DNA of 64,000 nt from a virus (taxonomy: Duplodnaviria; Caudoviricetes), in IMG/VR virus record IMGVR_UViG_3300011008_000028, one strand, 5' to 3'. The number at the start of each line of letters is the position of its first letter. Position 1 is the first letter of the stretch. The notes under the pieces are model-generated. The model did no database searches and had not been told where the DNA came from. It was given only the letters and a program-made list of their open reading frames with translations. The position numbers and the translations under genes are program-made. Below are positions 142-36,141 of this stretch, in pieces.

Positions 142-208
142 TATCTAAGAAATGTGTATAAACTATCAAACGAAATAATCCATCAGGCTAATTGTACCCT
201 ATAAAAGT

Positions 209-316
209 CGGCGGGCGCTATTCGGTGGTGACTCGGGTCACGGTGCTGGGGATGGTGCATTCAGTTGCTACCTGAATGGTACTGTGTCTTTTTCCTACTG
301 GTATTTTGGCGCCCGA
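209..316 (+). repeat. DGR variable-region-like cassette, copy 1 (orphan)
   Basis: 92/108 nt identical to 27489-27596; translates RRALFGGDSGHGAGDGAFSCYLNGTVSFSYWYFGAR, a CLec-fold DGR VR-type pattern; in-frame TAA at 176-178 and no ATG, so it is not part of a target gene. Confidence 0.85.
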
Positions 317-343
317 CTTTTAGGAATTCATAAAAGGTCCCAA

Positions 344-383
344 ACACCACACATCCGCCCAGACACGGGCGGATGTGTGGTGT
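344..383. terminator. 17-bp stem hairpin (terminator of 398..2950 and/or DGR-type post-VR hairpin)
   Basis: ACACCACACATCCGCCC-agacac-GGGCGGATGTGTGGTGT. Confidence 0.7.
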
Positions 384-397
384 GTTTATTGGGCAGA

Positions 398-23015: not shown

Positions 23016-23306
23016 ATGAAAGATAAGAATGAATATATCTATGCAATAGATACTGAGAAATATTTTCACGAAGCAAAACCCGTCGGGAAGATATATGATT
23101 TATGGCGAATTCCATGTAGTAATCCAGGCCCAGGGATCAAACTAGCCAGGTTCAAATATGACCATACATCAAAGTCTTGGCTATGGTTAAGTTTCGAAAT
23201 GTTCAAAGATTTCGTCAAATATCAAAACATATTGACATATATCAAAAATTTCAATACCAAGGAGGAAGTCATCAGATGGAATTCGATGAAAAGTTTATTG
23301 AAGTAG
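23016..23306 (+). CDS. hypothetical protein
   Basis: 96 aa after TATATTAT (22969-22976) and AAGGA; overlaps the gyrA start. Confidence 0.6.
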   Translation: MKDKNEYIYAIDTEKYFHEAKPVGKIYDLWRIPCSNPGPGIKLARFKYDHTSKSWLWLSFEMFKDFVKYQNILTYIKNFNTKEEVIRWNSMKSLLK

Positions 23307-26300
23307 AAGCAGGAGAGATCACCAAGAAATGGCAAAGTGTATATGCGTACAACATTGTCATCGCCAGGATGATCCCAGAATTGATTGATGGTCTCAATCC
23401 TGTTAAGCGCAGAGCTATCTATACTATGTTTCTAAAAGATGGAGGGAAGAATTTCAGGAAGGTGTTAGCGATTTCGGGAGACACCGTCGGTAAGGTCCAT
23501 CCTCATTCCAGCACTTCAATCGAAAGTGCAATTGTGGGGATGGGACAGCCATGGAAAAATACGATCCCCCTAATCGAAAGAAAAGGTAATTACGGGACCT
23601 GCTATGATGAGGATACAGAAGTATTGGTATTGGGTTATGCAGATGCTCCTAATACGGTATCATGGGTAAAATGGAAAGATTTCTATGATAAATGTTCAGG
23701 GAAGCTCGGTTCCTGTGATATTGAAACCGGTGAATGGTTATGGGAGGAACCTAGCAACCTTGTCAAGTACAATATGAAAGAAAGATATGCCGATGAACCT
23801 GAGAAGATGATCATGATTGTCGGTAAGAACTCCGGAGCAGGTGGAGCTCCTGGTGGAGCAGTTGACTCTTCCGGAGGTGGACAGACAGGGGTAAGCTCTA
23901 CCGCTGGTGCTCCTACAAATGATCCATCCTTGAATAACCCTATCGATTTAGGCGAAACCCCTCCTGCACCTGGTGGGGCAAATAAGTTCATCGACTTCAT
24001 GGTTACCGAAGATCATAACATGGTCATCAAGGCCGTGTCTCCTGCTCCCGATGAAGATAAGTTTGAATTCCGTAAAGCAAATGATCTTCCTGATGTATTC
24101 CAGACTAAGGTCAAGGATATCATAATTCCGGAAGAGAGGAAAGGATTCGGCGAGAAACACATTCTCCCTACTCCCAACATGGAACCATATGGACTGTGGC
24201 AGCCTGATACAGAGTACAAGGATCCAGATGATCTTGTGTGGGTAGTTGATGCATTTGGCAAATCAGATCTCCCGATGAATATCTTCTTGAAGGTGATATC
24301 TGTCTTCCTGGCATATGGTAAACTCACAACGGAAGACAAGATTGAACTCAATGACGATGCAACGAAGGTTGATCTGGATGATCTGAAAGGGCTGTTTGAG
24401 TTCGAGGATGACACCCATATTACTGATGGGAACATTGTGGCATTCTTCAAAGGATATGATGAACCGATCATGCCTCCTACAGAAGAAGGTGAAGGAGGCG
24501 AGGAAGAAGCGGAAGAGGAAGAATATCCGGCATTCATCCCATATGGGATATTCATGATGAATACCGAGAATATCGAAACATTCTTCTCGACATATGCTGA
24601 AGTAACTCAGTCGTCTCCTCTGATGATCAAAACCACAACACAGGATATCCAGTATCAATTCCAGGCATTGGCTGTTATGACAAGCAAGTTCACATCATTG
24701 GGGCAAACCGATCCTGAATGTAAGCATCCTGTTGGTAAGGCCCAGGCAGGAAAGTTCAAATACATCGTTGAATGCAAACCTGAATTCGAACCTCGAATCG
24801 AGAAGAAGACGGCAATCAGTACTGTTGAGTACAAAGGTGATGTTTACTGTGCTGAGATGCCTACACATCACACCATGGTCACCAGACGTAATGAAGTCAC
24901 ACTGATTGCAGGTAACTGCTCCGGTGATAGTGCAGGCGCTCCTCGTTACATTCAGGCAAAGCTCTCTGAATATGCTCAGGCATGTTACTTCGAAGACTGG
25001 AAAGATTCCGTTGTTGATATGGAACTTGCATATGATGAAGAGACAATGATGCCTAACTATCTCCCGGCCAAGTACCCGAATGTATTGGTCAACGGCTGTT
25101 TGGGTGTTGCATATGGTATCTCGGTACAGATTCCATCGTACAACTTCAAAGAAGTTCTTGATGCGACAATCATGTTGATGAGAGATCCAAATGCAAATAT
25201 CATTCTGATACCAGATTCTCCTACGGGAGCGGACATCATCGAGGCCGACTTCGGAGCAATCACGAAACGCGGCAAAGGCGTATATATGCAGAGATGCCGG
25301 TATGAGATTGATCCCGAAAGCAACATGATCACAATTACAGCACTTCCCGAGCGTAGTACAGCAAATGCTGTTCGTGAGACCATTGCAAATATCAAGGAGA
25401 AGGGTGGACTGTCTGAACTTCTGGCAATGAATGATCTCTCCGGTGTTGATATCAAGATCGAACTGATCATTCGTGATGACGTAAATCCATACAAGTTCAT
25501 GAAGAAGTTGATCTCACAGGTAGCTGGGCTTGAACAGTCATACCCTGTAACAGTACGAGTGACATCCGACTATATGCTCTTCAAATATTCCATCCCGCAA
25601 GTATTGCTTGAATGGATCAAGTGGAGAAGGGAACAGAAACGAACTGTCCTGTCTAACAAGAGAGGAACATTGTACGGAGAGCAGAGAGTTAATGATATCA
25701 AACTCTTCATCATGAACCCGCAGAATCTGAAGGATACACTGGATATTTTCAGACACTCTCACAACCGACAGGAGATTGAAGAGAAGCTGATTGCCAAGTA
25801 TCGTCATACCGAGATCATGATGGATTCCGTTCAGGCTCGTGCTCTGTCTAACATGAGAATGATCGAACTAACGATCGATGCTTATGAAGGATATAAGAAA
25901 AGGGCAGAAGAAATCCGCAAGGAACTGCAGGAGATCGAGGACACACTGAATGCGGATGACGGTGTTGACAAGGTAATCATTGCGGAACTGAGAGAAGGTA
26001 TTAAACGTTTCGGGAAACCAAGACGTTCAAGAGTTGTTCCATACCAGATTTCTGTATCCAATGAGGTCGATGGTTGGTGCATACTGCAGCTGTCTTCGGA
26101 CGGTACAATCATTCGAATTCCGGCAACCAACGCAGATACTGAACCCGTTCCTACCGATACCAATGGATTTGCATGTCTGGTAGATAATGACGCTTCGTTC
26201 ATTCTGATAGATGATAAGGGATTCCATACATTTATTCGGGTCAAGGAACTGCCGGTGAACTCTGAAGTTCCTGTGTTCCGGTATTCCAAGAAACCATTGG

Positions 26301-26941
26301 ATGGGAAGGTTGTTGCAATGCTTCCATTCGATATCGAGTCGGATAAGTGTTGTACATTGATATCCAGACAGGGTGTTGTCAAGAAGGTTCGCATTGCCGA
26401 TATTGGCCCGTCAAAGAAGCCGATAATCACAATCGACAAGGATGATCGGATTGTGAAGGGAATCGTACTCAGAGCAAAGTCTCAGAAGGATCTCCTTATA
26501 TATACCAAGAATGGTATGGGACAGAGACTTGATCCTAACTCCATCCGGATCACCTCCCCATCTGCCAAGGGTATGAATGGATTCAAACTGAAGAATGATG
26601 ATGAGATATGCGGAGTATATTCAATCTCCCCAGAAGAGAATTCGTATCTGTTGTATGTAACAGCCAAGGGTAAGATGAGACTTAACCTCATTGACTATCT
26701 CCCTACCAGAGAATCCAAACATGATTCAATGGTGCAGCTCATCATGCTTAATGACAGAGATAAGCTGGTGGCTGTTGCCGGTTGTAACAAACTCGACAAG
26801 GCAACGGTGTACTATGATGACTCTGATTCGGAGACTATCGATATTAGCAAACTTCCGGAGTCTACAATGGCAAGTGAACCCAAGAAGGTCACATCGAAGA
26901 ATGCGGTATCAAACAACATTACCAAGGTCAAAATAAACTAA
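23276..26941 (+). CDS. gyrA: type IIA topoisomerase subunit A (GyrA/ParC) with intein
   Basis: DGLNPVKRR, KVHPHS, GNYG, APRY (catalytic Tyr), YLPAKYPNVLVNG, C-terminal pinwheel repeats; start set at ATG 23276 after GGAGG. Confidence 0.92.
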   Translation: MEFDEKFIEVEAGEITKKWQSVYAYNIVIARMIPELIDGLNPVKRRAIYTMFLKDGGKNFRKVLAISGDTVGKVHPHSSTSIESAIVGMGQPWKNTIPLIERKGNYGTCYDEDTEVLVLGYADAPNTVSWVKWKDFYDKCSGKLGSCDIETGEWLWEEPSNLVKYNMKERYADEPEKMIMIVGKNSGAGGAPGGAVDSSGGGQTGVSSTAGAPTNDPSLNNPIDLGETPPAPGGANKFIDFMVTEDHNMVIKAVSPAPDEDKFEFRKANDLPDVFQTKVKDIIIPEERKGFGEKHILPTPNMEPYGLWQPDTEYKDPDDLVWVVDAFGKSDLPMNIFLKVISVFLAYGKLTTEDKIELNDDATKVDLDDLKGLFEFEDDTHITDGNIVAFFKGYDEPIMPPTEEGEGGEEEAEEEEYPAFIPYGIFMMNTENIETFFSTYAEVTQSSPLMIKTTTQDIQYQFQALAVMTSKFTSLGQTDPECKHPVGKAQAGKFKYIVECKPEFEPRIEKKTAISTVEYKGDVYCAEMPTHHTMVTRRNEVTLIAGNCSGDSAGAPRYIQAKLSEYAQACYFEDWKDSVVDMELAYDEETMMPNYLPAKYPNVLVNGCLGVAYGISVQIPSYNFKEVLDATIMLMRDPNANIILIPDSPTGADIIEADFGAITKRGKGVYMQRCRYEIDPESNMITITALPERSTANAVRETIANIKEKGGLSELLAMNDLSGVDIKIELIIRDDVNPYKFMKKLISQVAGLEQSYPVTVRVTSDYMLFKYSIPQVLLEWIKWRREQKRTVLSNKRGTLYGEQRVNDIKLFIMNPQNLKDTLDIFRHSHNRQEIEEKLIAKYRHTEIMMDSVQARALSNMRMIELTIDAYEGYKKRAEEIRKELQEIEDTLNADDGVDKVIIAELREGIKRFGKPRRSRVVPYQISVSNEVDGWCILQLSSDGTIIRIPATNADTEPVPTDTNGFACLVDNDASFILIDDKGFHTFIRVKELPVNSEVPVFRYSKKPLDGKVVAMLPFDIESDKCCTLISRQGVVKKVRIADIGPSKKPIITIDKDDRIVKGIVLRAKSQKDLLIYTKNGMGQRLDPNSIRITSPSAKGMNGFKLKNDDEICGVYSISPEENSYLLYVTAKGKMRLNLIDYLPTRESKHDSMVQLIMLNDRDKLVAVAGCNKLDKATVYYDDSDSETIDISKLPESTMASEPKKVTSKNAVSNNITKVKIN
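23600..24916 (+). mobile_element. intein in GyrA (439 aa) with degenerate LAGLIDADG region and low-complexity inserts
   Basis: GNYGT|CYDEDTEVL, VTEDHNMV (block B), YKGDVYCAEM..HTMVTRRN..IAGN|C; removal restores GNYGT-CSGDSAGAPRY. Confidence 0.9.
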
Positions 26942-27217: not shown

Positions 27218-27466
27218 ATGGAGCCTAACCTAAAATTTACCATTACTGATACTACCAAATTTGAAGAAGGTATAGACGGCCCTTGTGTTATCAAAGGTGC
27301 TGACAAGGGTATCGATATTGTCTTCATTAGAATCACTGATTCTAAAGTAAAATTTAAAGGCAATCAAGATACGATCCGTCAAATTGCTCGATCTAATCAT
27401 ATCAGTATGAACAAAGCTCGGAAACGATTTGCAAGGATTTATCGCGCCATCGTTAACATCTCATAG
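27218..27466 (+). CDS. small hypothetical protein
   Basis: 82 aa, GGAGG RBS. Confidence 0.7.
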   Translation: MEPNLKFTITDTTKFEEGIDGPCVIKGADKGIDIVFIRITDSKVKFKGNQDTIRQIARSNHISMNKARKRFARIYRAIVNIS

Positions 27467-27488
27467 TCATATGCTTCTCTTAAGAAAT

Positions 27489-27596
27489 CGGCGGGCGCTA
27501 TTCGGTGGTCACTCGTATCACGGTGCTTCAGATGGTGCATTCTATTGCGACCTGACTGGTACTGTGTCTGGTTCCAACTGGAATATTGGCGCCCGC
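27489..27596 (+). repeat. DGR variable-region-like cassette, copy 2 (orphan)
   Basis: translates RRALFGGHSYHGASDGAFYCDLTGTVSGSNWNIGAR, continuing LSLKP; only a short RBS-less frame from ATG 27471; hairpin ACATCCC-attc-GGGATGT at 27643-27660. Confidence 0.85.
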
Positions 27597-27727
27597 CTCT
27601 CCCTGAAACCGACCGCGGAAGGGAGAATCAAGAGACTTGGAAACATCCCATTCGGGATGTGTCGCCAGATGCAATAATTAACAGATAAAAATTATTGAAA
27701 TGATATATTATAAACATAAGAAAGGAG

Positions 27728-29866
27728 TTGAGAGCAATGACATTTGAAAAGATCTTATCTGATGTATCTATGGATATTATGAGCTTACAGGATGCATATA
27801 ATGAAATTCTTAAGAAAGATCATTTTAAAAAGATCAATTATTATGCCCATATCAATGATATCAGCAAAGAGCCAATGAGCGAAGGGCAGTTGCAGGAATT
27901 GGAAGCAATTGTGGATATACTTCAGATACTGTATAATTCCAGTGTCGGCAGCCCTGTTACCGATTCTGATTTTGATTCTCTACAGGAAACACTTGTTAGT
28001 ATGGGCATACCAAGACTGTCTGGTAGTCTGGAGATCAATGACAATAACAAAGTCAGCGGGATGTTTACGACTCTGCGGGGTACATTGGGTAAAACTTACT
28101 ATCTGTATCCTGATGAAATCCGTACCAACAAATCCCGAGACTATCTCGATGATTGGATCAAACGTACTGAAGCTCTGTATGAGCGGAAGACTGGAAAGAA
28201 GATTGATCTGAATAAAGTGAAATGTGTTGTTCAAAGCAAATTCGATGGGGTAAGCGTAACTCTCGAATACAGTGGAGAGAAGCCTGTGTGGATTAGCCGA
28301 GGAGATACCAAAGCCAACAGGGCATCTGATGTGAGTCATCATATGAAACAATTCAACGATGTCTTCTGCAATGATGGTCCAATTGGTATCAAGTTCGAAT
28401 GTATGATGAGCGAGGAGAACTTCGAATATATCAATTCCCTAATAAGTAATCCTCAGTTACGGTATCACAATTCCAGGCAGGTTGTGACATCTACACTGAA
28501 CTCAGGTGAAGCGGATTTCAAATCAGAATATCTGTATCCCGTACCATTGCGTGTTATACACCCTGGGGAAGATATGGAAGAGATTCATCCAGATATGTAT
28601 GCGAAGTTCCCGACTGTTGTATGCACATTCGGGGATCGTGATATCATCAAGAAGTTCGCAAATGAACATCGGTATGTTGAATATCGCGGGATGCATTTCC
28701 GGACAGATGGTGCCGTATTGACAATACTTGATCCTGAAATAAGACGCGTCCTTGGTCGTGAAGAGAATGTTAATAAGTTCGAAGTCGCGTATAAGTTCAC
28801 CGAAGAACAGGCCATTACCAAAGTCAAGAAGGTCGAGTTCTATGTATCCAATTTCGGGTTTGTGACTCCAGTACTTGTGGTGAATGATGTAATCCTTAAG
28901 GGTAATACAATCAACCACATATCTCTGTCCAATAAGGAACGGTTTGATGAGCTTGATCTTCATTACGGTGATGAAGTCAAGGTACTATATGACATCATTC
29001 CGTATGTGATCATCGATCCGATGTGCAATCGGCAGCCACATGGTCGGAAGATCGAGTTCGTCCGTTTCTGTCCAAGATGCGGTCATGAGCTGAATCTGAA
29101 TACTACTCAAATCCAGTGTAAGAACCCATCCTGTCCATGTAAAGTCATCGGCAATATTCTGAACTATTGTCAGGGAGTGAGGATCCAGAATATTGGTTAT
29201 TCCACCCTAGAGCAACTGTGGAATGCCGGACTTCTTAAGAATGGAATTCGTTCATTGTATAAGCTCAAGAAGAAGGCAAATGAGATTACCGATCTTGAAG
29301 GATTTGGGCAACTCAAGGCAAGGAAGATCATTTCGGAAATCGAAGCGAAACGTCGGCTTCCGGATTATATCTTCTTCGGGTCCATTGGAATACAAGGCCT
29401 GTCTACGAAATCCTTCCAGGAAATATTCAGCAAAGTACCTCTGGATGATTTCGTCAATATGATCAAGGCGAAATCGTTTGAACTACTGAGAGAACGGCTA
29501 TTGATGGCAAACACCATCGGCGCTGTGAAGACTGGTGATCTCGTGAACTGGCTCAAGGATACAAAGAACCGCACTGAACTATTCAAACTCATGGATGAGT
29601 TGTTGATCAAAGAATCTTACTCTGCTGCAGAAGTATCCAAGAATATGATCAAGATTGTATTCTCTGGATGTAGACCATCTGAAGAGATGAGAGCAATGTT
29701 AACGAATCATGGATATGAAGTATGCGACAATTGGCATTCTCAGGCCAGGTATCTGGTCATCCCCAGGAATGGATTCACATCCAGTAAGGTTAACAAAGCC
29801 ATGAGTAAAGGCATCCCGATAATAACTATCGGAAATATAACAAGAGATATACCAGGTCTCATATAA
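27728..29866 (+). CDS. ligA: NAD-dependent DNA ligase
   Basis: TDSDFDSL, KFDGVS, SRGD, TDGAVL, AYKF, CPRCG..C.NPSC Zn finger, HhH repeats, C-terminal BRCT. Confidence 0.92.
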   Translation: MRAMTFEKILSDVSMDIMSLQDAYNEILKKDHFKKINYYAHINDISKEPMSEGQLQELEAIVDILQILYNSSVGSPVTDSDFDSLQETLVSMGIPRLSGSLEINDNNKVSGMFTTLRGTLGKTYYLYPDEIRTNKSRDYLDDWIKRTEALYERKTGKKIDLNKVKCVVQSKFDGVSVTLEYSGEKPVWISRGDTKANRASDVSHHMKQFNDVFCNDGPIGIKFECMMSEENFEYINSLISNPQLRYHNSRQVVTSTLNSGEADFKSEYLYPVPLRVIHPGEDMEEIHPDMYAKFPTVVCTFGDRDIIKKFANEHRYVEYRGMHFRTDGAVLTILDPEIRRVLGREENVNKFEVAYKFTEEQAITKVKKVEFYVSNFGFVTPVLVVNDVILKGNTINHISLSNKERFDELDLHYGDEVKVLYDIIPYVIIDPMCNRQPHGRKIEFVRFCPRCGHELNLNTTQIQCKNPSCPCKVIGNILNYCQGVRIQNIGYSTLEQLWNAGLLKNGIRSLYKLKKKANEITDLEGFGQLKARKIISEIEAKRRLPDYIFFGSIGIQGLSTKSFQEIFSKVPLDDFVNMIKAKSFELLRERLLMANTIGAVKTGDLVNWLKDTKNRTELFKLMDELLIKESYSAAEVSKNMIKIVFSGCRPSEEMRAMLTNHGYEVCDNWHSQARYLVIPRNGFTSSKVNKAMSKGIPIITIGNITRDIPGLI

Positions 29867-32156: not shown

Positions 32157-32807
32157 ATGAATATACTTGAAATGATCGAATGGAAACCATTCAACCTTGA
32201 AACTGCTCCGAAGAATCACACTCTGATACTTCGCAATGTAGCAGATCATCTGGATATTACCATGGTGATTTACAATGCCCAAACAGGAAAGTTTGCCATC
32301 ATGAACGCTAACCCGATCTCTGAAGTTAGCGAGGAGATGTATGACAAGGGACTCATTCTGGTCGACCATGATAAGTTCGAAAACTCGGAGTATTTTACAG
32401 TTCAGGATCTCTCTCAGCAGGATGCGTCGATCGTCACCAGCGCTGCGTTACTGGATCTGACTGCCATGTCACCAATTTTCTACCCGAGGTTCGATCACAA
32501 GAACGCCAAAGAGTTCGTCTCAAAGAATATCATGATTCCCACTGTTCAGCCGTTTTTCTCCGTCTTTAACAGTGCAATGATGATCGAGGATATTGCGAAC
32601 TCGACAATGGTTAGTAAGACGAAGGTATCTGGATCGGATATCGTGTCTTTCTATGATACCATGGATCATGCCAAGAACATGAAGATGTTTGCACTGGTAT
32701 CCATGCACAGAGAGTGGATCGCTGTTCAGGATAAGGATGAACTTCTCGATGAAACATATGAGAAGATGGTTGCCAATGGTGCATTTGATGATGAGGAGGA
32801 AGAATAA
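32157..32807 (+). CDS. hypothetical protein, first gene of the NAD cluster
   Basis: 216 aa, AGGAGG RBS; TAATG overlap with pncA. Confidence 0.7.
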   Translation: MNILEMIEWKPFNLETAPKNHTLILRNVADHLDITMVIYNAQTGKFAIMNANPISEVSEEMYDKGLILVDHDKFENSEYFTVQDLSQQDASIVTSAALLDLTAMSPIFYPRFDHKNAKEFVSKNIMIPTVQPFFSVFNSAMMIEDIANSTMVSKTKVSGSDIVSFYDTMDHAKNMKMFALVSMHREWIAVQDKDELLDETYEKMVANGAFDDEEEE

Positions 32808-33418
32808 TGAAAAAGAAATTACTAATTGTAATCGATATGCAGAAAGACTTTGTCGATGGAAGTCTTGGAAGTAGGCAGGCACAGGCAATCGTTCCTCGCG
32901 TACAGGAACTGATTGATTCTGATGAGTTTGACATTACTCTCTTTACCAGAGATACTCACAATGAAGACTACTTGGACAATACTCTCGAAGGCAAGATGCT
33001 CCCAGTTAAGCACTGCATCTATGAGACAGATGGTTGGCAGCTGGTTGTTAAACCCAAGATCGAAGAGTACAATGGTCTGTCGGCTATCATCGACAAGTAC
33101 ACGTTCGGCTCTACGAATCTTGTACCAACAATCATTGAGGCAATATCCAATTTCGAGAGTACCTATAGGCTCACGATTCCGGATATCGCCAAAGAATTCA
33201 TCGATACTATTACGATTGTCGGGCTGTGTACCGACATCTGTGTTATCTCCAATGCACTTCTTCTGAGAGCCGAATTCCCTGATACAAGAATCATCTGTGA
33301 TGCGTCGGCATGTGCTGGTGTTACACCTCATCGTCATGAGTGCGCTCTGGAAGTTATGAGAAGTTGTCAGATCGAAGTAATCAACGCATGCCCTGATATG
33401 CCCAATGAGAAGGAGTAA
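32807..33418 (+). CDS. pncA: nicotinamidase (isochorismatase family)
   Basis: VIDMQKDFVDGSL, TRDTH, HC...GW, DKYTFGS, GLCTDICV. Confidence 0.9.
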   Translation: MKKKLLIVIDMQKDFVDGSLGSRQAQAIVPRVQELIDSDEFDITLFTRDTHNEDYLDNTLEGKMLPVKHCIYETDGWQLVVKPKIEEYNGLSAIIDKYTFGSTNLVPTIIEAISNFESTYRLTIPDIAKEFIDTITIVGLCTDICVISNALLLRAEFPDTRIICDASACAGVTPHRHECALEVMRSCQIEVINACPDMPNEKE

Positions 33419-34657
33419 ATGATGTTTATTTTGGAGAAGATAGATCACAAGCTTCCGAGAATCATCAATAGCCTGTTGGAGACAGACATGTATAAGTTCT
33501 CCATGGGACAGGCGATATATCACCAGTTCTCGGATTACAAAACCACATGGACATTCAAATGCAGGAATCAGGATGTCCACTTTACAGAAGAGATGGTTGA
33601 GGAGATCAAGAATCAGATTAAGCTGTATTGCGAACTGCAGTTTACCGAGGAAGAGCTCCAGTACCTGAACAACATCAAATGGATCAAAGGATCATATGTG
33701 GACTTCCTCCGGCTGTGGAGACCTCGGTTCGAAGACTTCGAAATATCATCTGATTCCGCCTGCGGACTTTCCATTGAGACCAAGGGAACTTGGCTAAATA
33801 CTTCTATGTATGAGATCCCTACATTGGCGATCGTCAATGAGGTGTATTTCAAAATGCAATACGATTATCAGATGCTTCTGAAGAGCTTCCAACAGAAGCT
33901 GGACGAAAAGTGTGAATGGATTCACAAGGGAACCATCTACCCTGGCACATTCTCCGAGTTCGGTCTAAGAAGAAGACTGTCTGGAGATGCACAGGAATTG
34001 GCCGTCAAGCAGCTATCGGAAACCAGACTCTGTTCCGGCAAGTTCGTCGGTACATCCAATGTCTATCTGGCAAAGAAGTATAACCTGACTCCCGTAGGAA
34101 CAATGGCTCATGAATGGTGCATGTGTGTAGGCCAAGGCAACCATAAGCACAACCCTGCATATTCCAACTGGTATGCTCTGGATGCCTGGGTTAAAGAATA
34201 TGGAGTCCTGAATGGAATTGCATTAACAGATGCAATCACAACTGACTGCTTCCTGAAGGACTTCAGACTTACATATGCTACCCTCTTCTCAGGCGTAAGG
34301 CATGATTCTGGTGATCCTTATGAGTGGGGCGAAAAGATGATCAAACACTACGAGTCGCTCGGAATCAATCCGAAAACAAAGACTCTGTTGTTCAGTGATT
34401 CTCTCGACTTCCATAGAGCAGACAAGCTCTTCCGTCACTTCTGTGAATACACAAACGTTGCATTCGGCATTGGAACATATCTTTCAAATGATACCGATGT
34501 TGCCCCGCTTAATATCGTTATGAAGACAACGATGTGCAACGGAATGGATGTAGCCAAGATCTCGGATACCGAAGGTAAAGGAATGTGTAAGAATCCAGAG
34601 TACGTTGAGTATCTGAAGAGATGTATAGATTGGAGAATGAGTCATGAAGCCAGGTAG
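33419..34657 (+). CDS. pncB: nicotinate phosphoribosyltransferase
   Basis: SLLETDMYKFSM, EFGLRRR, GTSN, GTMAHEW, GVRHDSGDP, FSDSL, FGIGT, KISD..GK. Confidence 0.95.
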   Translation: MMFILEKIDHKLPRIINSLLETDMYKFSMGQAIYHQFSDYKTTWTFKCRNQDVHFTEEMVEEIKNQIKLYCELQFTEEELQYLNNIKWIKGSYVDFLRLWRPRFEDFEISSDSACGLSIETKGTWLNTSMYEIPTLAIVNEVYFKMQYDYQMLLKSFQQKLDEKCEWIHKGTIYPGTFSEFGLRRRLSGDAQELAVKQLSETRLCSGKFVGTSNVYLAKKYNLTPVGTMAHEWCMCVGQGNHKHNPAYSNWYALDAWVKEYGVLNGIALTDAITTDCFLKDFRLTYATLFSGVRHDSGDPYEWGEKMIKHYESLGINPKTKTLLFSDSLDFHRADKLFRHFCEYTNVAFGIGTYLSNDTDVAPLNIVMKTTMCNGMDVAKISDTEGKGMCKNPEYVEYLKRCIDWRMSHEAR

Positions 34658-35246
34658 AGTTATACTAATTCCTGGGACATTCAATCCACCTACAAACGCC
34701 CATATCGCAATGAGTCAGGAATTACATAAAGTATTTCCCGGAAGTAAAATTGTGTATGTTCCCTGTAATGATAACTACACAGTGGAATACAAGAAGCAAC
34801 AGGGATGTATCAAGATGGAAGACCGTGTTCGGCTGTTGTATGGATGTATTAATCAGAAATATTCGTATGTGTCGATATTTGAAGCCAATGCTGATCCATA
34901 CGGATACCTTATAGATACTGCCCGGTATTATCATTCCATCTATGATGATGTCGCAATCTGTCTGGGTGATGACAATCTTAAACATTTCGATACATGGAAA
35001 GATGCTGAAGCACTGATTCAGGAGAATATGATTGTATATTTCCATAGAGCCGGCTATTGTGGCAACTTCTGTAAATTAATACAAGATCATCACTGGCAGT
35101 GTATTTCAGTTCCTGGGGTTATTCCAAACATCTCATCCACGAAAATACGTCAAGCGTATCTAGATGGGAACTGGGATCTGATAATCCAGAATGTTCCGGA
35201 AAACGTATTCTTGTATCTTCGTTACACAGATGGCCTCTTTGAGTGA
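34644..35246 (+). CDS. nadD: nicotinate/nicotinamide mononucleotide adenylyltransferase
   Basis: GTFNPPTNAH, GDDNL..F.TW, ISSTKIR, VPENV..Y. Confidence 0.88.
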   Translation: MKPGRVILIPGTFNPPTNAHIAMSQELHKVFPGSKIVYVPCNDNYTVEYKKQQGCIKMEDRVRLLYGCINQKYSYVSIFEANADPYGYLIDTARYYHSIYDDVAICLGDDNLKHFDTWKDAEALIQENMIVYFHRAGYCGNFCKLIQDHHWQCISVPGVIPNISSTKIRQAYLDGNWDLIIQNVPENVFLYLRYTDGLFE

Positions 35247-35254
35247 TATGAAAA

Positions 35255-35280
35255 CAGATGGGCAGGATCCTGCCCATCTG
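35255..35280. terminator. perfect 26-nt palindrome between nadD and nadE
   Basis: CAGATGGGCAGGATCCTGCCCATCTG. Confidence 0.6.
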
Positions 35281-35307
35281 AGTTATTTTTATAAAGGAGA
35301 ATTCAAA

Positions 35308-36141
35308 ATGGAATATGATGTCAAAGATTATACCCGATGGATCATCGAATGGATCCAGGGCTGGTTCAATGTTAATGGCAAAGGTTGTAATGCCATAGTC
35401 GGAATATCCGGCGGTAAGGACAGCACGATTGTTGCCAAACTTTGTTGTGAAGCTCTCGGTGAAGATCGTGTCAGCGGTGTGTTAATTCCGATGGATATGG
35501 AACCTGACCCGATTGCATATCGCGTAATCCAGTATCTTGGGATTCATTATACCACGATCATAATCGGTCAAGCATATAAGTCCATCATTGATCAGATCTA
35601 TTCGTTTGGCGATCGAGTTTATATACATAAAGATCTCGTGACTCGACAGATTAATGAGGAACCATCCGCTGCAACCAAGATCAATCTCCCGGCTAGATTG
35701 AGAATGGCTGTGTTATATGCACATGCCCAATCCAATAACGGGCGTGTTGCAAATACATGCAACTTCTCCGAAGACTATGTTGGCTACTCTACCAGATACG
35801 GTGATAGTGTTGGTGACTTCAGCCCTATCTCAAACTTCACCGTTACTGAAGTCAAAGAGATTGGCAGGTATCTTGGAATTCCGAACGAATTCATCGATAG
35901 ACCTCCAGAAGATGGTCTATGCGGGAAAACGGATGAGGACAATCTTGGGTTCACATATGATATGCTGGATAAGTATATCACCGAGGGTATCCTTCCCCCT
36001 CCCGAGATCAAGGAGAAAATCGATCGTCTTCATAAGCAGAATCTATTCAAGCTCAAACTAATGGAGTCCTGTCCGAACCCATTCGTCAAGAGAGCAGCTC
36101 TTGATGAACTAAAGGAGGAGAGCCCAGTTGACAGAGTTTAA
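35308..36141 (+). CDS. nadE: NH3-dependent NAD+ synthetase
   Basis: VGISGGKDS, NLPARLRMAVLY, NFSEDYVGYSTRYGD, PEDGL..TDEDNLGFTY; ATG 35308 after AAGGAG. Confidence 0.93.
   Translation: MEYDVKDYTRWIIEWIQGWFNVNGKGCNAIVGISGGKDSTIVAKLCCEALGEDRVSGVLIPMDMEPDPIAYRVIQYLGIHYTTIIIGQAYKSIIDQIYSFGDRVYIHKDLVTRQINEEPSAATKINLPARLRMAVLYAHAQSNNGRVANTCNFSEDYVGYSTRYGDSVGDFSPISNFTVTEVKEIGRYLGIPNEFIDRPPEDGLCGKTDEDNLGFTYDMLDKYITEGILPPPEIKEKIDRLHKQNLFKLKLMESCPNPFVKRAALDELKEESPVDRV

Follow-up and report, generated by a model that had tools for sequence, protein, structure and literature searches.

An intergenic copy of a tail-protein variable end as a probable ectopic recipient site of the single DGR of a gut jumbo phage

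In the 64,000-nt stretch of Caudoviricetes phage DNA that was analyzed as a whole (the window), one repeat pair stands out. The pair, 27485-27598 and 205-318, aligned over 114 nt without gaps at 85% identity (BLAST, E = 2e-32). Chance is ruled out by a wide margin as its origin, and no second long repeat pair of this kind was found within the window. We focused on the copy that extends over 27485-27642 (c2); its partner at the start of the window is referred to as copy 1 or c1. c2 is intergenic: the gene caller of the source assembly predicted no gene there, and its neighbors are a gene for a fused type II topoisomerase (23177-26941), two small ORFs, and a gene for an NAD-dependent DNA ligase (27737-29866). 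The topoisomerase gene is a single 1254-aa ORF with topoisomerase II/gyrase A-type domains (PF00521, PF03989); its N-terminal part matches phage topoisomerase II families, and the protein looks like a fused large-plus-small subunit form. Just downstream of the ligase gene, Pfam searches identified four adjacent genes of deamidating NAD+ salvage (32157-36141), which encode an isochorismatase/PncA-like protein, NAPRTase, a NadD-like nucleotidyltransferase, and NAD synthase.

An ORF across c2 indicated what the repeat resembles, with a match confined to the last 42 positions of phrog_5302, a tail-protein family of 548 positions (2e-8). Searches of GenBank phages with the c2 DNA and of IMG/VR with the leader pattern gave no match, and comparison of c2 with the Rfam covariance models gave none at E <= 1. 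JGI metagenome contigs scanned twice for VR patterns masked with N likewise yielded no hit, but these scans missed even a JGI contig known to us, and the collection probably does not include the samples concerned.

We then placed the window in its genome. It is part of ENA contig NODE_13 (147,105 bp), in which position 72416 corresponds to the first position of the window. Two IMG/VR contigs, G001 (71.5 kb) and G002 (118.7 kb), overlap the end of the ENA contig at an identity of at least 99.97% and add about 108 kb beyond it. Therefore, the sequence belongs to a jumbo phage of at least 255 kb, a size with which the CheckV completeness figures agree. The host genome of the copies described here is thus that of a giant gut jumbo phage, and the cultured phages closest to it by ligase are Staphylococcus jumbo phages (about 29% identity). 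The NrdD gene of the phage (anaerobic ribonucleotide reductase, PF13597; L003:10918-14080) is split into parts of 290 and 392 aa by a 239-aa HTH-domain ORF, which may be an intron or homing-endonuclease insertion. An AT-rich motif near ATATATTATTAAC(T)TGA is strongly enriched upstream of genes, for example at about 128-150 on the minus strand of the window; among 142 upstream regions, 27-36 contain its core 7-mers, where 2-4 would be expected. The phage encodes an RNAP, and the motif probably serves as its main promoter.

A DGR locus occupies the contig end, about 10 kb from where the window stops and on the opposite strand. It comprises an RT gene, a TR located 235 nt upstream of the RT, and the final 56 nt of the gene that bears the VR. 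The ENA contig breaks within this target gene, and an IMG/VR contig of the same phage shows the DGR whole, with target tail protein, VR, TR, and RT. The target is a 545-aa phrog_5302 tail protein (7e-89) whose final ~40 codons form the VR. The RT has 369 aa (PF00078, 1e-21; phrog_1423, 5e-99) with a YMDD motif, and its motif 4 reads LGFYTSH; the usual DGR RT motif 4 ends in SQ. From these sequences, the phage is predicted to carry one canonical DGR composed of target tail protein, TR, and RT. No Avd-like accessory protein was recognized, and a YxDD scan of the window revealed no RT inside it. The homology between TR and VR spans 90 nt, from GGTGGT to GGCGCC, after which the VR goes on with CGCCTCTCCC and the TR with ATGCTGCG. 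The consensus of the real VR is identical across four assemblies and has one non-adenine change from the TR, T83G. Three records of related phage DGRs, of which two are complete genomes, each show a single VR, a single TR, and no extra copies. In the closest relative of the RT (58% identity; IMG/VR record G006, L133:1260-1590), the VR lies inside a real target ORF, at a distance of 8.6 kb from the TR, which is on the other strand. That contig likewise ends in the VR, and the record is too fragmentary for a judgment on extra copies.

Comparison with this DGR gave the anatomy of c2 (Table 1). c2 corresponds to about 120 nt at the 3' end of the target gene and consists of 9 nt of pre-VR sequence, the 90-nt VR, and 23 nt of post-VR, IMH-like sequence. 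The initial annotation had proposed that this VR-type copy keeps a target-gene-like tail, and comparison of its 3' flank with the IMH of the genuine target bore this out over 23 nt. The VR frame also continues after IGAR as had been read, giving ...NIGARLSLKPTAEGR... Because c2 contains both GCGCTATTC and the 23-nt tail and the TR lacks both, c2 derives from the 3' end of the target and not from the TR. The 3' element of c2 is of the VR type, unlike that of the TR, and is a putative IMH. We also considered the cassettes as extra TRs and rejected this idea: they have no adenines at the variable sites and no TR downstream sequence, and carry target-gene flanks instead. Farther downstream, the first 12 nt of the tail at 27617-27642 are common to c3 and cB, two other cassettes described below, and the remainder is common to cB. 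In c1, the post-VR tail is reduced to CG. The flanks of c1 and c2 are otherwise unrelated, as had been noticed, and the similarity ends 5' at TCGGCGG and 3' at GGCGCCCG.

Table 1. Features of c2 and of its sister cassette c1, in window coordinates
Feature	Position	Strand	Remarks
Cassette leader TCGGCGGGCGC	27488-27498	+	Common to copy 1 (208-218) and cA; not in the target gene
GCGCTATTC, 9 nt	27495-27503	+	Also in the real target directly before the VR; not in the TR
VR core of c2, 90 nt	27504-27593	+	12 positions unlike the TR; matches the C-terminus of the phrog_5302 tail protein (2e-8)
IMH-like tail CGCCTCTCCCTGAAACCGACCGC	27594-27616	+	Identical to the final codons of the target gene; differs from the post-TR sequence
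Cassette-specific tail GGAAGGGAGAAT followed by CAAGAGACTTGGAA	27617-27642	+	Not in the target gene
Hairpin 1, TCTCCCT/AGGGAGA with inner CCG/CGG mini-stem	27598-27626	+	Folds
Hairpin 2, ACATCCC-ATTC-GGGATGT	27643-27660	+	Folds; no T-run after it
68-codon open frame	27471-27677	+	Probably untranslated; no RBS; ATG to AGG in X5
Sister cassette c1	199-387	+	16/16 differences from the TR at TR adenines
TATAAA box of c1	200-205		
Leader of c1	208-218		
VR core of c1	224-313		
Hairpin of c1	340-387		17-21 bp

Copies of the variable end of the tail-protein gene, the window segment 27485-27642 among them, were found outside genes at no fewer than six intergenic loci with distinct flanks; we refer to them as cassettes. 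Three of them, c1, c2, and c3, are certain and lie on the contig of the window, and G002 carries cA and two further cassettes with c3-type leaders. c3 is intergenic, 47.7 kb upstream of the window and after a tail-fibre operon; it adjoins a phage gene for a 618-aa Cpn60/GroEL-type chaperonin (L011:8043-9899, minus strand). The long leaders are of two types, c3-type and cA-type, which align poorly with each other and are accompanied by different tails. The leader of c1 and c2 is a deleted form of the cA leader, and the leaders of c3 and cB are near-identical upstream of the VR. c2 thus has its tail in common with cB and its leader in common with c1, which suggests a crossover inside the VR. cA, present in G002 at 23153-23289 (L037:3153-3289), is cleanly deleted in the sister assembly G001 at about 48440; the deletion begins where the leader arm begins, reaches into the 3' arm, and leaves a scar in which TATAAAAATC is joined to CCCGCCTCTCCC.

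Contigs of this phage repeatedly end inside cassettes, and the link between cassettes and DGR has therefore been hidden. In G002, odd junctions occur at one VR position in two copies, and the end of the contig is a cassette with exactly the real VR allele, T83G included; these junctions and the terminal cassette may be mis-assemblies. G002 also contains two inverted half-cassettes, at 71577-71703 (minus strand) and 92240-92337 (plus strand), which share a 73-nt VR core and are about 20 kb apart. The junctions in G001 1-152 and in a Logan contig differ from those of the half-cassettes, which may reflect either an inversion polymorphism between cassettes or mis-assembly.

The differences between the cassettes and the TR were confined almost entirely to one kind of position. 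c2 differs from the TR at 12 positions, and all 12 are among the 27 TR adenines in the 90 positions compared (P = 6e-8). The corresponding counts of differences at TR adenines were 16 of 16 in c1, 13 of 13 in c3, 17 of 17 in cA, and 15 of 17 in cB, with P values across the cassettes from 6e-8 to 9e-12. In any pair of copies, 13-20 of the 27 adenine sites are different and 0-3 of the remaining sites, and even the sister copies with common derived flanks (c1 and c2; c3 and cB) differ at 14-16 adenine sites and at 0-2 others. Furthermore, all 63 non-adenine VR positions are identical to the TR in c1, c2, c3, and cA, despite their diverged leaders. This combination is expected of continued overwriting by cDNA, not of decaying fragments. 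c2 therefore shows near-identity to a TR, mismatches confined to adenines, and an RT and TR in the same genome, as a recipient site does; the placement of a VR at the 3' end of a protein-coding gene is not found in c2, which is intergenic.

The same positions also vary at the locus itself. The orthologous c2 locus is represented by contigs X3 and X5, from two further studies of the animal gut. The 5' flank shows 3 changes over about 113 nt in X5 (27372-27570) and the 3' flank shows 4 changes over 125 nt in X3, so that the flanks are about 97% identical, while the VR parts of X5 and X3 carry 13 and 22 changes, respectively. Among the best-supported differences, a list that leaves 28 others aside, 18 of 18 variable places in 27504-27593 are TR-adenine positions, and this comparison of contigs from three studies shows between-population rather than within-population variation. 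The contigs of the source run stop in the VR (27544 and 27614) and have about 6x depth with 31-mers common to the copies, and hence were uninformative. The initial annotation had taken both repeats for homing targets that may still be active. For c2, the 12 adenine differences and the letters that vary between studies support this view, whereas the hairpins on which it also drew are unlike that of the target.

The hairpins themselves were largely as described. TCTCCCT and AGGGAGA are both present and can pair, the latter at 27620-27626 and the former at 27598-27604 instead of 27597-27603. The next hairpin consists of ACATCCC (27643-27649), the loop ATTC, and GGGATGT (27654-27660), and its arms resemble those of the copy-1 hairpin, which holds ACATCC and GGATGTGT as had been pointed out. 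The stems of hairpins 1 and 2 are present in the minimum-energy folds of both RNA and DNA. When the 83-nt tail was folded as DNA, the z value was -2.2 and 6 of 200 shuffles folded equally well; the two small hairpins of c2 are not beyond chance. No terminator-like site was scored at hairpin 2.

Nor did the hairpins prove to be a homing element of the target's type, since the real target lacks AGGGAGA and both hairpins are disrupted in the X3 orthologue. The described DGR hairpin has a GC-rich stem of 7-10 bp and a 4-nt GRNA loop and follows the VR at a distance of 4-34 bp (PMC3240598). Hairpin 1 begins 4 nt past the VR, but its loop measures 15 nt, and hairpin 2 has a 4-nt ATTC loop and lies about 50 nt away; the hairpin of the real target is another one, with 12 bp and a distance of about 55 nt. 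Hairpin 1 is common to c2, c3, and cB. Its second arm is supplied by the cassette-specific tail GGAAGGGAGAAT..., and this 3' arm is missing in the real target, cA, c1, and the X3 orthologue. In X3, 27617-27650 is replaced by a single C, by which one arm of each hairpin is lost, and yet the VR is diversified. Either the hairpins are unneeded here or the diversification is older than their loss. Some GC-rich hairpin of unrelated sequence occurs within 35-60 nt after every copy and after the real gene.

Taking these results together, we consider c2 to be probably a non-coding ectopic recipient site of the single DGR of the phage, acted on in trans (an "orphan VR cassette"). c2 would have originated when a target-type tail-protein gene had its 3' end duplicated at the DNA level, and would retain the elements needed for cDNA replacement, namely the VR homology and the VR-type 3' element GGCGCC-CGCCTCTCCC. 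The RT encoded beyond the window end would copy the TR RNA with errors at adenines, and the resulting cDNA would overwrite c2 in trans in the same manner as it does the real VR. Such rewriting would be direct retrohoming rather than recombination with other copies, and may still be ongoing. c2 is likely a live or recently live recipient, because its differences are adenine-only, its adenine sites change fast and differ between populations, and editing in trans has a precedent. In that precedent, an IMH and hairpin moved into a kanamycin-resistance gene sufficed for targeting, with the pre-VR sequence dispensable (PMC3240598), and reporters at about 5000 E. coli chromosomal sites were edited (PMC12875486).

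Several observations weigh against parts of this scheme. Against direct homing, the letters of c2 could be obtained by recombination among the copies or with the real VR, the leader of c2 is of the c1/cA type but its tail of the cB type, and one G002 cassette has the exact real VR, possibly by mis-assembly. Against the recipient-site explanation as a whole, c1 is as diversified as the other cassettes although its post-VR element is reduced to CG, both hairpins are missing from the X3 orthologue, and an Avd-like protein was not recognized. c2 most likely yields no protein, and the cassettes may be neutral baggage or useful elements.

One alternative is that the cassettes form a bank of alleles, in which the six or more silent copies, diversified by the DGR, would be shuffled among themselves and into the expressed gene by recombination. 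We regard this as unlikely, though the best placed of the alternatives, and it is a supplement to the ectopic recipient-site explanation, not a replacement for it. It fits the presence of several partial copies, all ORF-less, that represent the variable part of an expressed receptor-binding gene, the reassortment of leader and tail types among cassettes, which suggests crossovers within the VR, the real VR allele (T83G included) in the cassette at the G002 end, and the retention of c2 in relatives from other studies. However, the identical-allele cassette stands at the end of a contig that has two other odd junctions at one VR position and is possibly chimeric; the flanks share only short stretches with the target (9 nt and 23 nt); direct sight of a recombinant that joins cassette and gene was not obtained; and the three related phage DGRs have no extra copies. 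Neisseria pilS/pilE and Borrelia vls are known systems in which unexpressed partial copies represent the variable part of an expressed surface-protein gene. They are not known to carry a retroelement mutation signature, whereas the phage cassettes have one, and for the phage, transfer from a cassette into the expressed gene is conjecture. If such a bank existed, it would join retroelement hypermutation to cassette-type gene conversion and provide a memory of past receptor-binding alleles.

Next in probability, and likewise unlikely, is that the cassettes are frozen fragments, that is, dead pieces of the target gene that recombined at different times, preserve snapshots of past VR alleles, and are now unrewritten. 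Target-gene sequence on both sides of the VR would be explained in this way, the clean deletion of one cassette in a sister assembly indicates that it is dispensable, and the identity of the real VR consensus in four assemblies means that DGR activity may be low. Frozen pieces should not, however, differ at 14-16 adenine sites and 0-2 others while sharing derived flanks, as c1/c2 and c3/cB do, nor should their leaders be highly diverged while the non-adenine VR positions match the TR perfectly. The adenine sites at the same locus also differ between studies. These points favor the recipient-site explanation.

A structured RNA or DNA element is improbable as well, and we rank it below the two alternatives above. 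According to this proposal, the cassette would be a small transcription unit giving a closed-rod RNA that would act on the DGR, for example by binding antisense cDNA or the RT. In c2, GCGCCCGCC stands at the VR 3' end (27589-27597) and has its reverse complement in the leader part GGCGGGCGC; this complement of 9 nt was matched by 3 of 5000 shuffles. The start of the long leaders is likewise an inverted copy of the GC-rich 3' end of the VR, CGGGCGCCA in the c3-type and GGCGGGCG(C) in the cA-type, in different registers. Both leader types thus complement the same 3' element in shifted registers over 8-9 nt (shuffle fractions 0.0002-0.04), and because of this complementarity, the fold of leader, VR, and 3' element is a closed rod (z = -4.7 for c2, -3.6 for c1, and -2.4 for cA). 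The real VR and TR have no leader-type complement and do not fold as a rod. In addition, a cassette-specific TATAAA box stands directly before the leader in five cassettes, and strong hairpins lie downstream.

On the other hand, c2 has no TATAAA box, and no promoter or terminator was scored. The rod of c3 is unexceptional (z = -0.6), the interior of the rod is randomized by design, no Rfam match was obtained, and the TATAAA box is unlike the motif enriched before phage genes, ATATATTATTAAC. We also examined the TATAAA box as a general phage promoter and rejected it: the box is cassette-specific, and the gene-upstream motif is a different one. The leader complement, the rod, the TATAAA box, and the loss of cA hint at a structure with a role or at the origin of the copies.

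Finally, the 68-aa hypervariable peptide proposed in the initial annotation is very unlikely. Such a micro-protein would start at ATG 27471, and we considered that it might be translationally coupled to an upstream 82-codon ORF ending 4 nt before that ATG. Although its frame is open and the same as that of the target, with the variable positions at codon positions 1 and 2, the start lacks an RBS (the preceding 20 nt contain no Shine-Dalgarno sequence, in line with the earlier reading), the ATG is AGG in X5, no start is shared by the paralogues (c1 and cA have none in frame, and in cB a 1-nt indel shifts the frame relative to the leader ATG of c3), no protein of 45-144 aa in a 5.8-billion-protein collection shares words with the peptide, no gene was called at c2 in the source assembly, and the fragment represents only about 40 C-terminal residues of a 545-aa protein. 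Fusion of c2 to the upstream ORF by stop-codon recoding was rejected, as the frames differ and the large genes are intact under table 11.

We compared c2, as a probable ectopic recipient site, with known DGR systems. The VR of the BPP-1 mtd DGR is alike in that about 90 nt match a TR beside an RT with differences at TR adenines only, in that a GC-rich VR-type 3' element is unlike the post-TR sequence, and in that a hairpin lies downstream (PMC3240598). c2 differs from mtd in that it lies in no gene and that six or more copies are dispersed through a genome of 255 kb or more, in that the leader flanking the VR of the phage cassettes repeats the 3' element in inverted form, and in that its hairpins misfit the pattern of a 7-10 bp stem, GRNA loop, and 4-34 bp distance. 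In the DGR of Trichodesmium erythraeum, one TR serves 12 genes, and all 12 VRs are at the 3' ends of protein-coding genes (PMC4143802). The phage resembles it in that one TR and one RT would serve many dispersed VRs in trans, but only one of at least seven VRs in the phage ends a coding gene. In engineered reporters, a VR/IMH fragment outside its native gene is likewise edited in trans, at any position in a genome (PMC3240598; PMC12875486). Those were laboratory constructs under selection, whereas the phage cassettes are natural, unselected, and apparently long-lived.

DGR surveys define the VR as part of a coding sequence (PMC8144416), and ORF-less copies are therefore filtered out or ignored. 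In the DGR literature that we searched, multi-target cases included, VRs were in coding genes and no ORF-less VRs were found. Rewriting by a DGR of copies that probably encode nothing, as appears to occur in this phage, thus appears not to have been described for DGRs. As dispersed repeats, the cassettes mark where several assemblies of the phage break, and they may serve as stores of alleles. The copies also constitute a natural deletion series for target requirements, with or without the tail, with or without each hairpin, and with long or short leaders. Action in trans at any site that has the right cis-elements was previously seen only with engineered reporters; if the ORF-less cassettes are truly rewritten, retrohoming would act in this way in nature as well.
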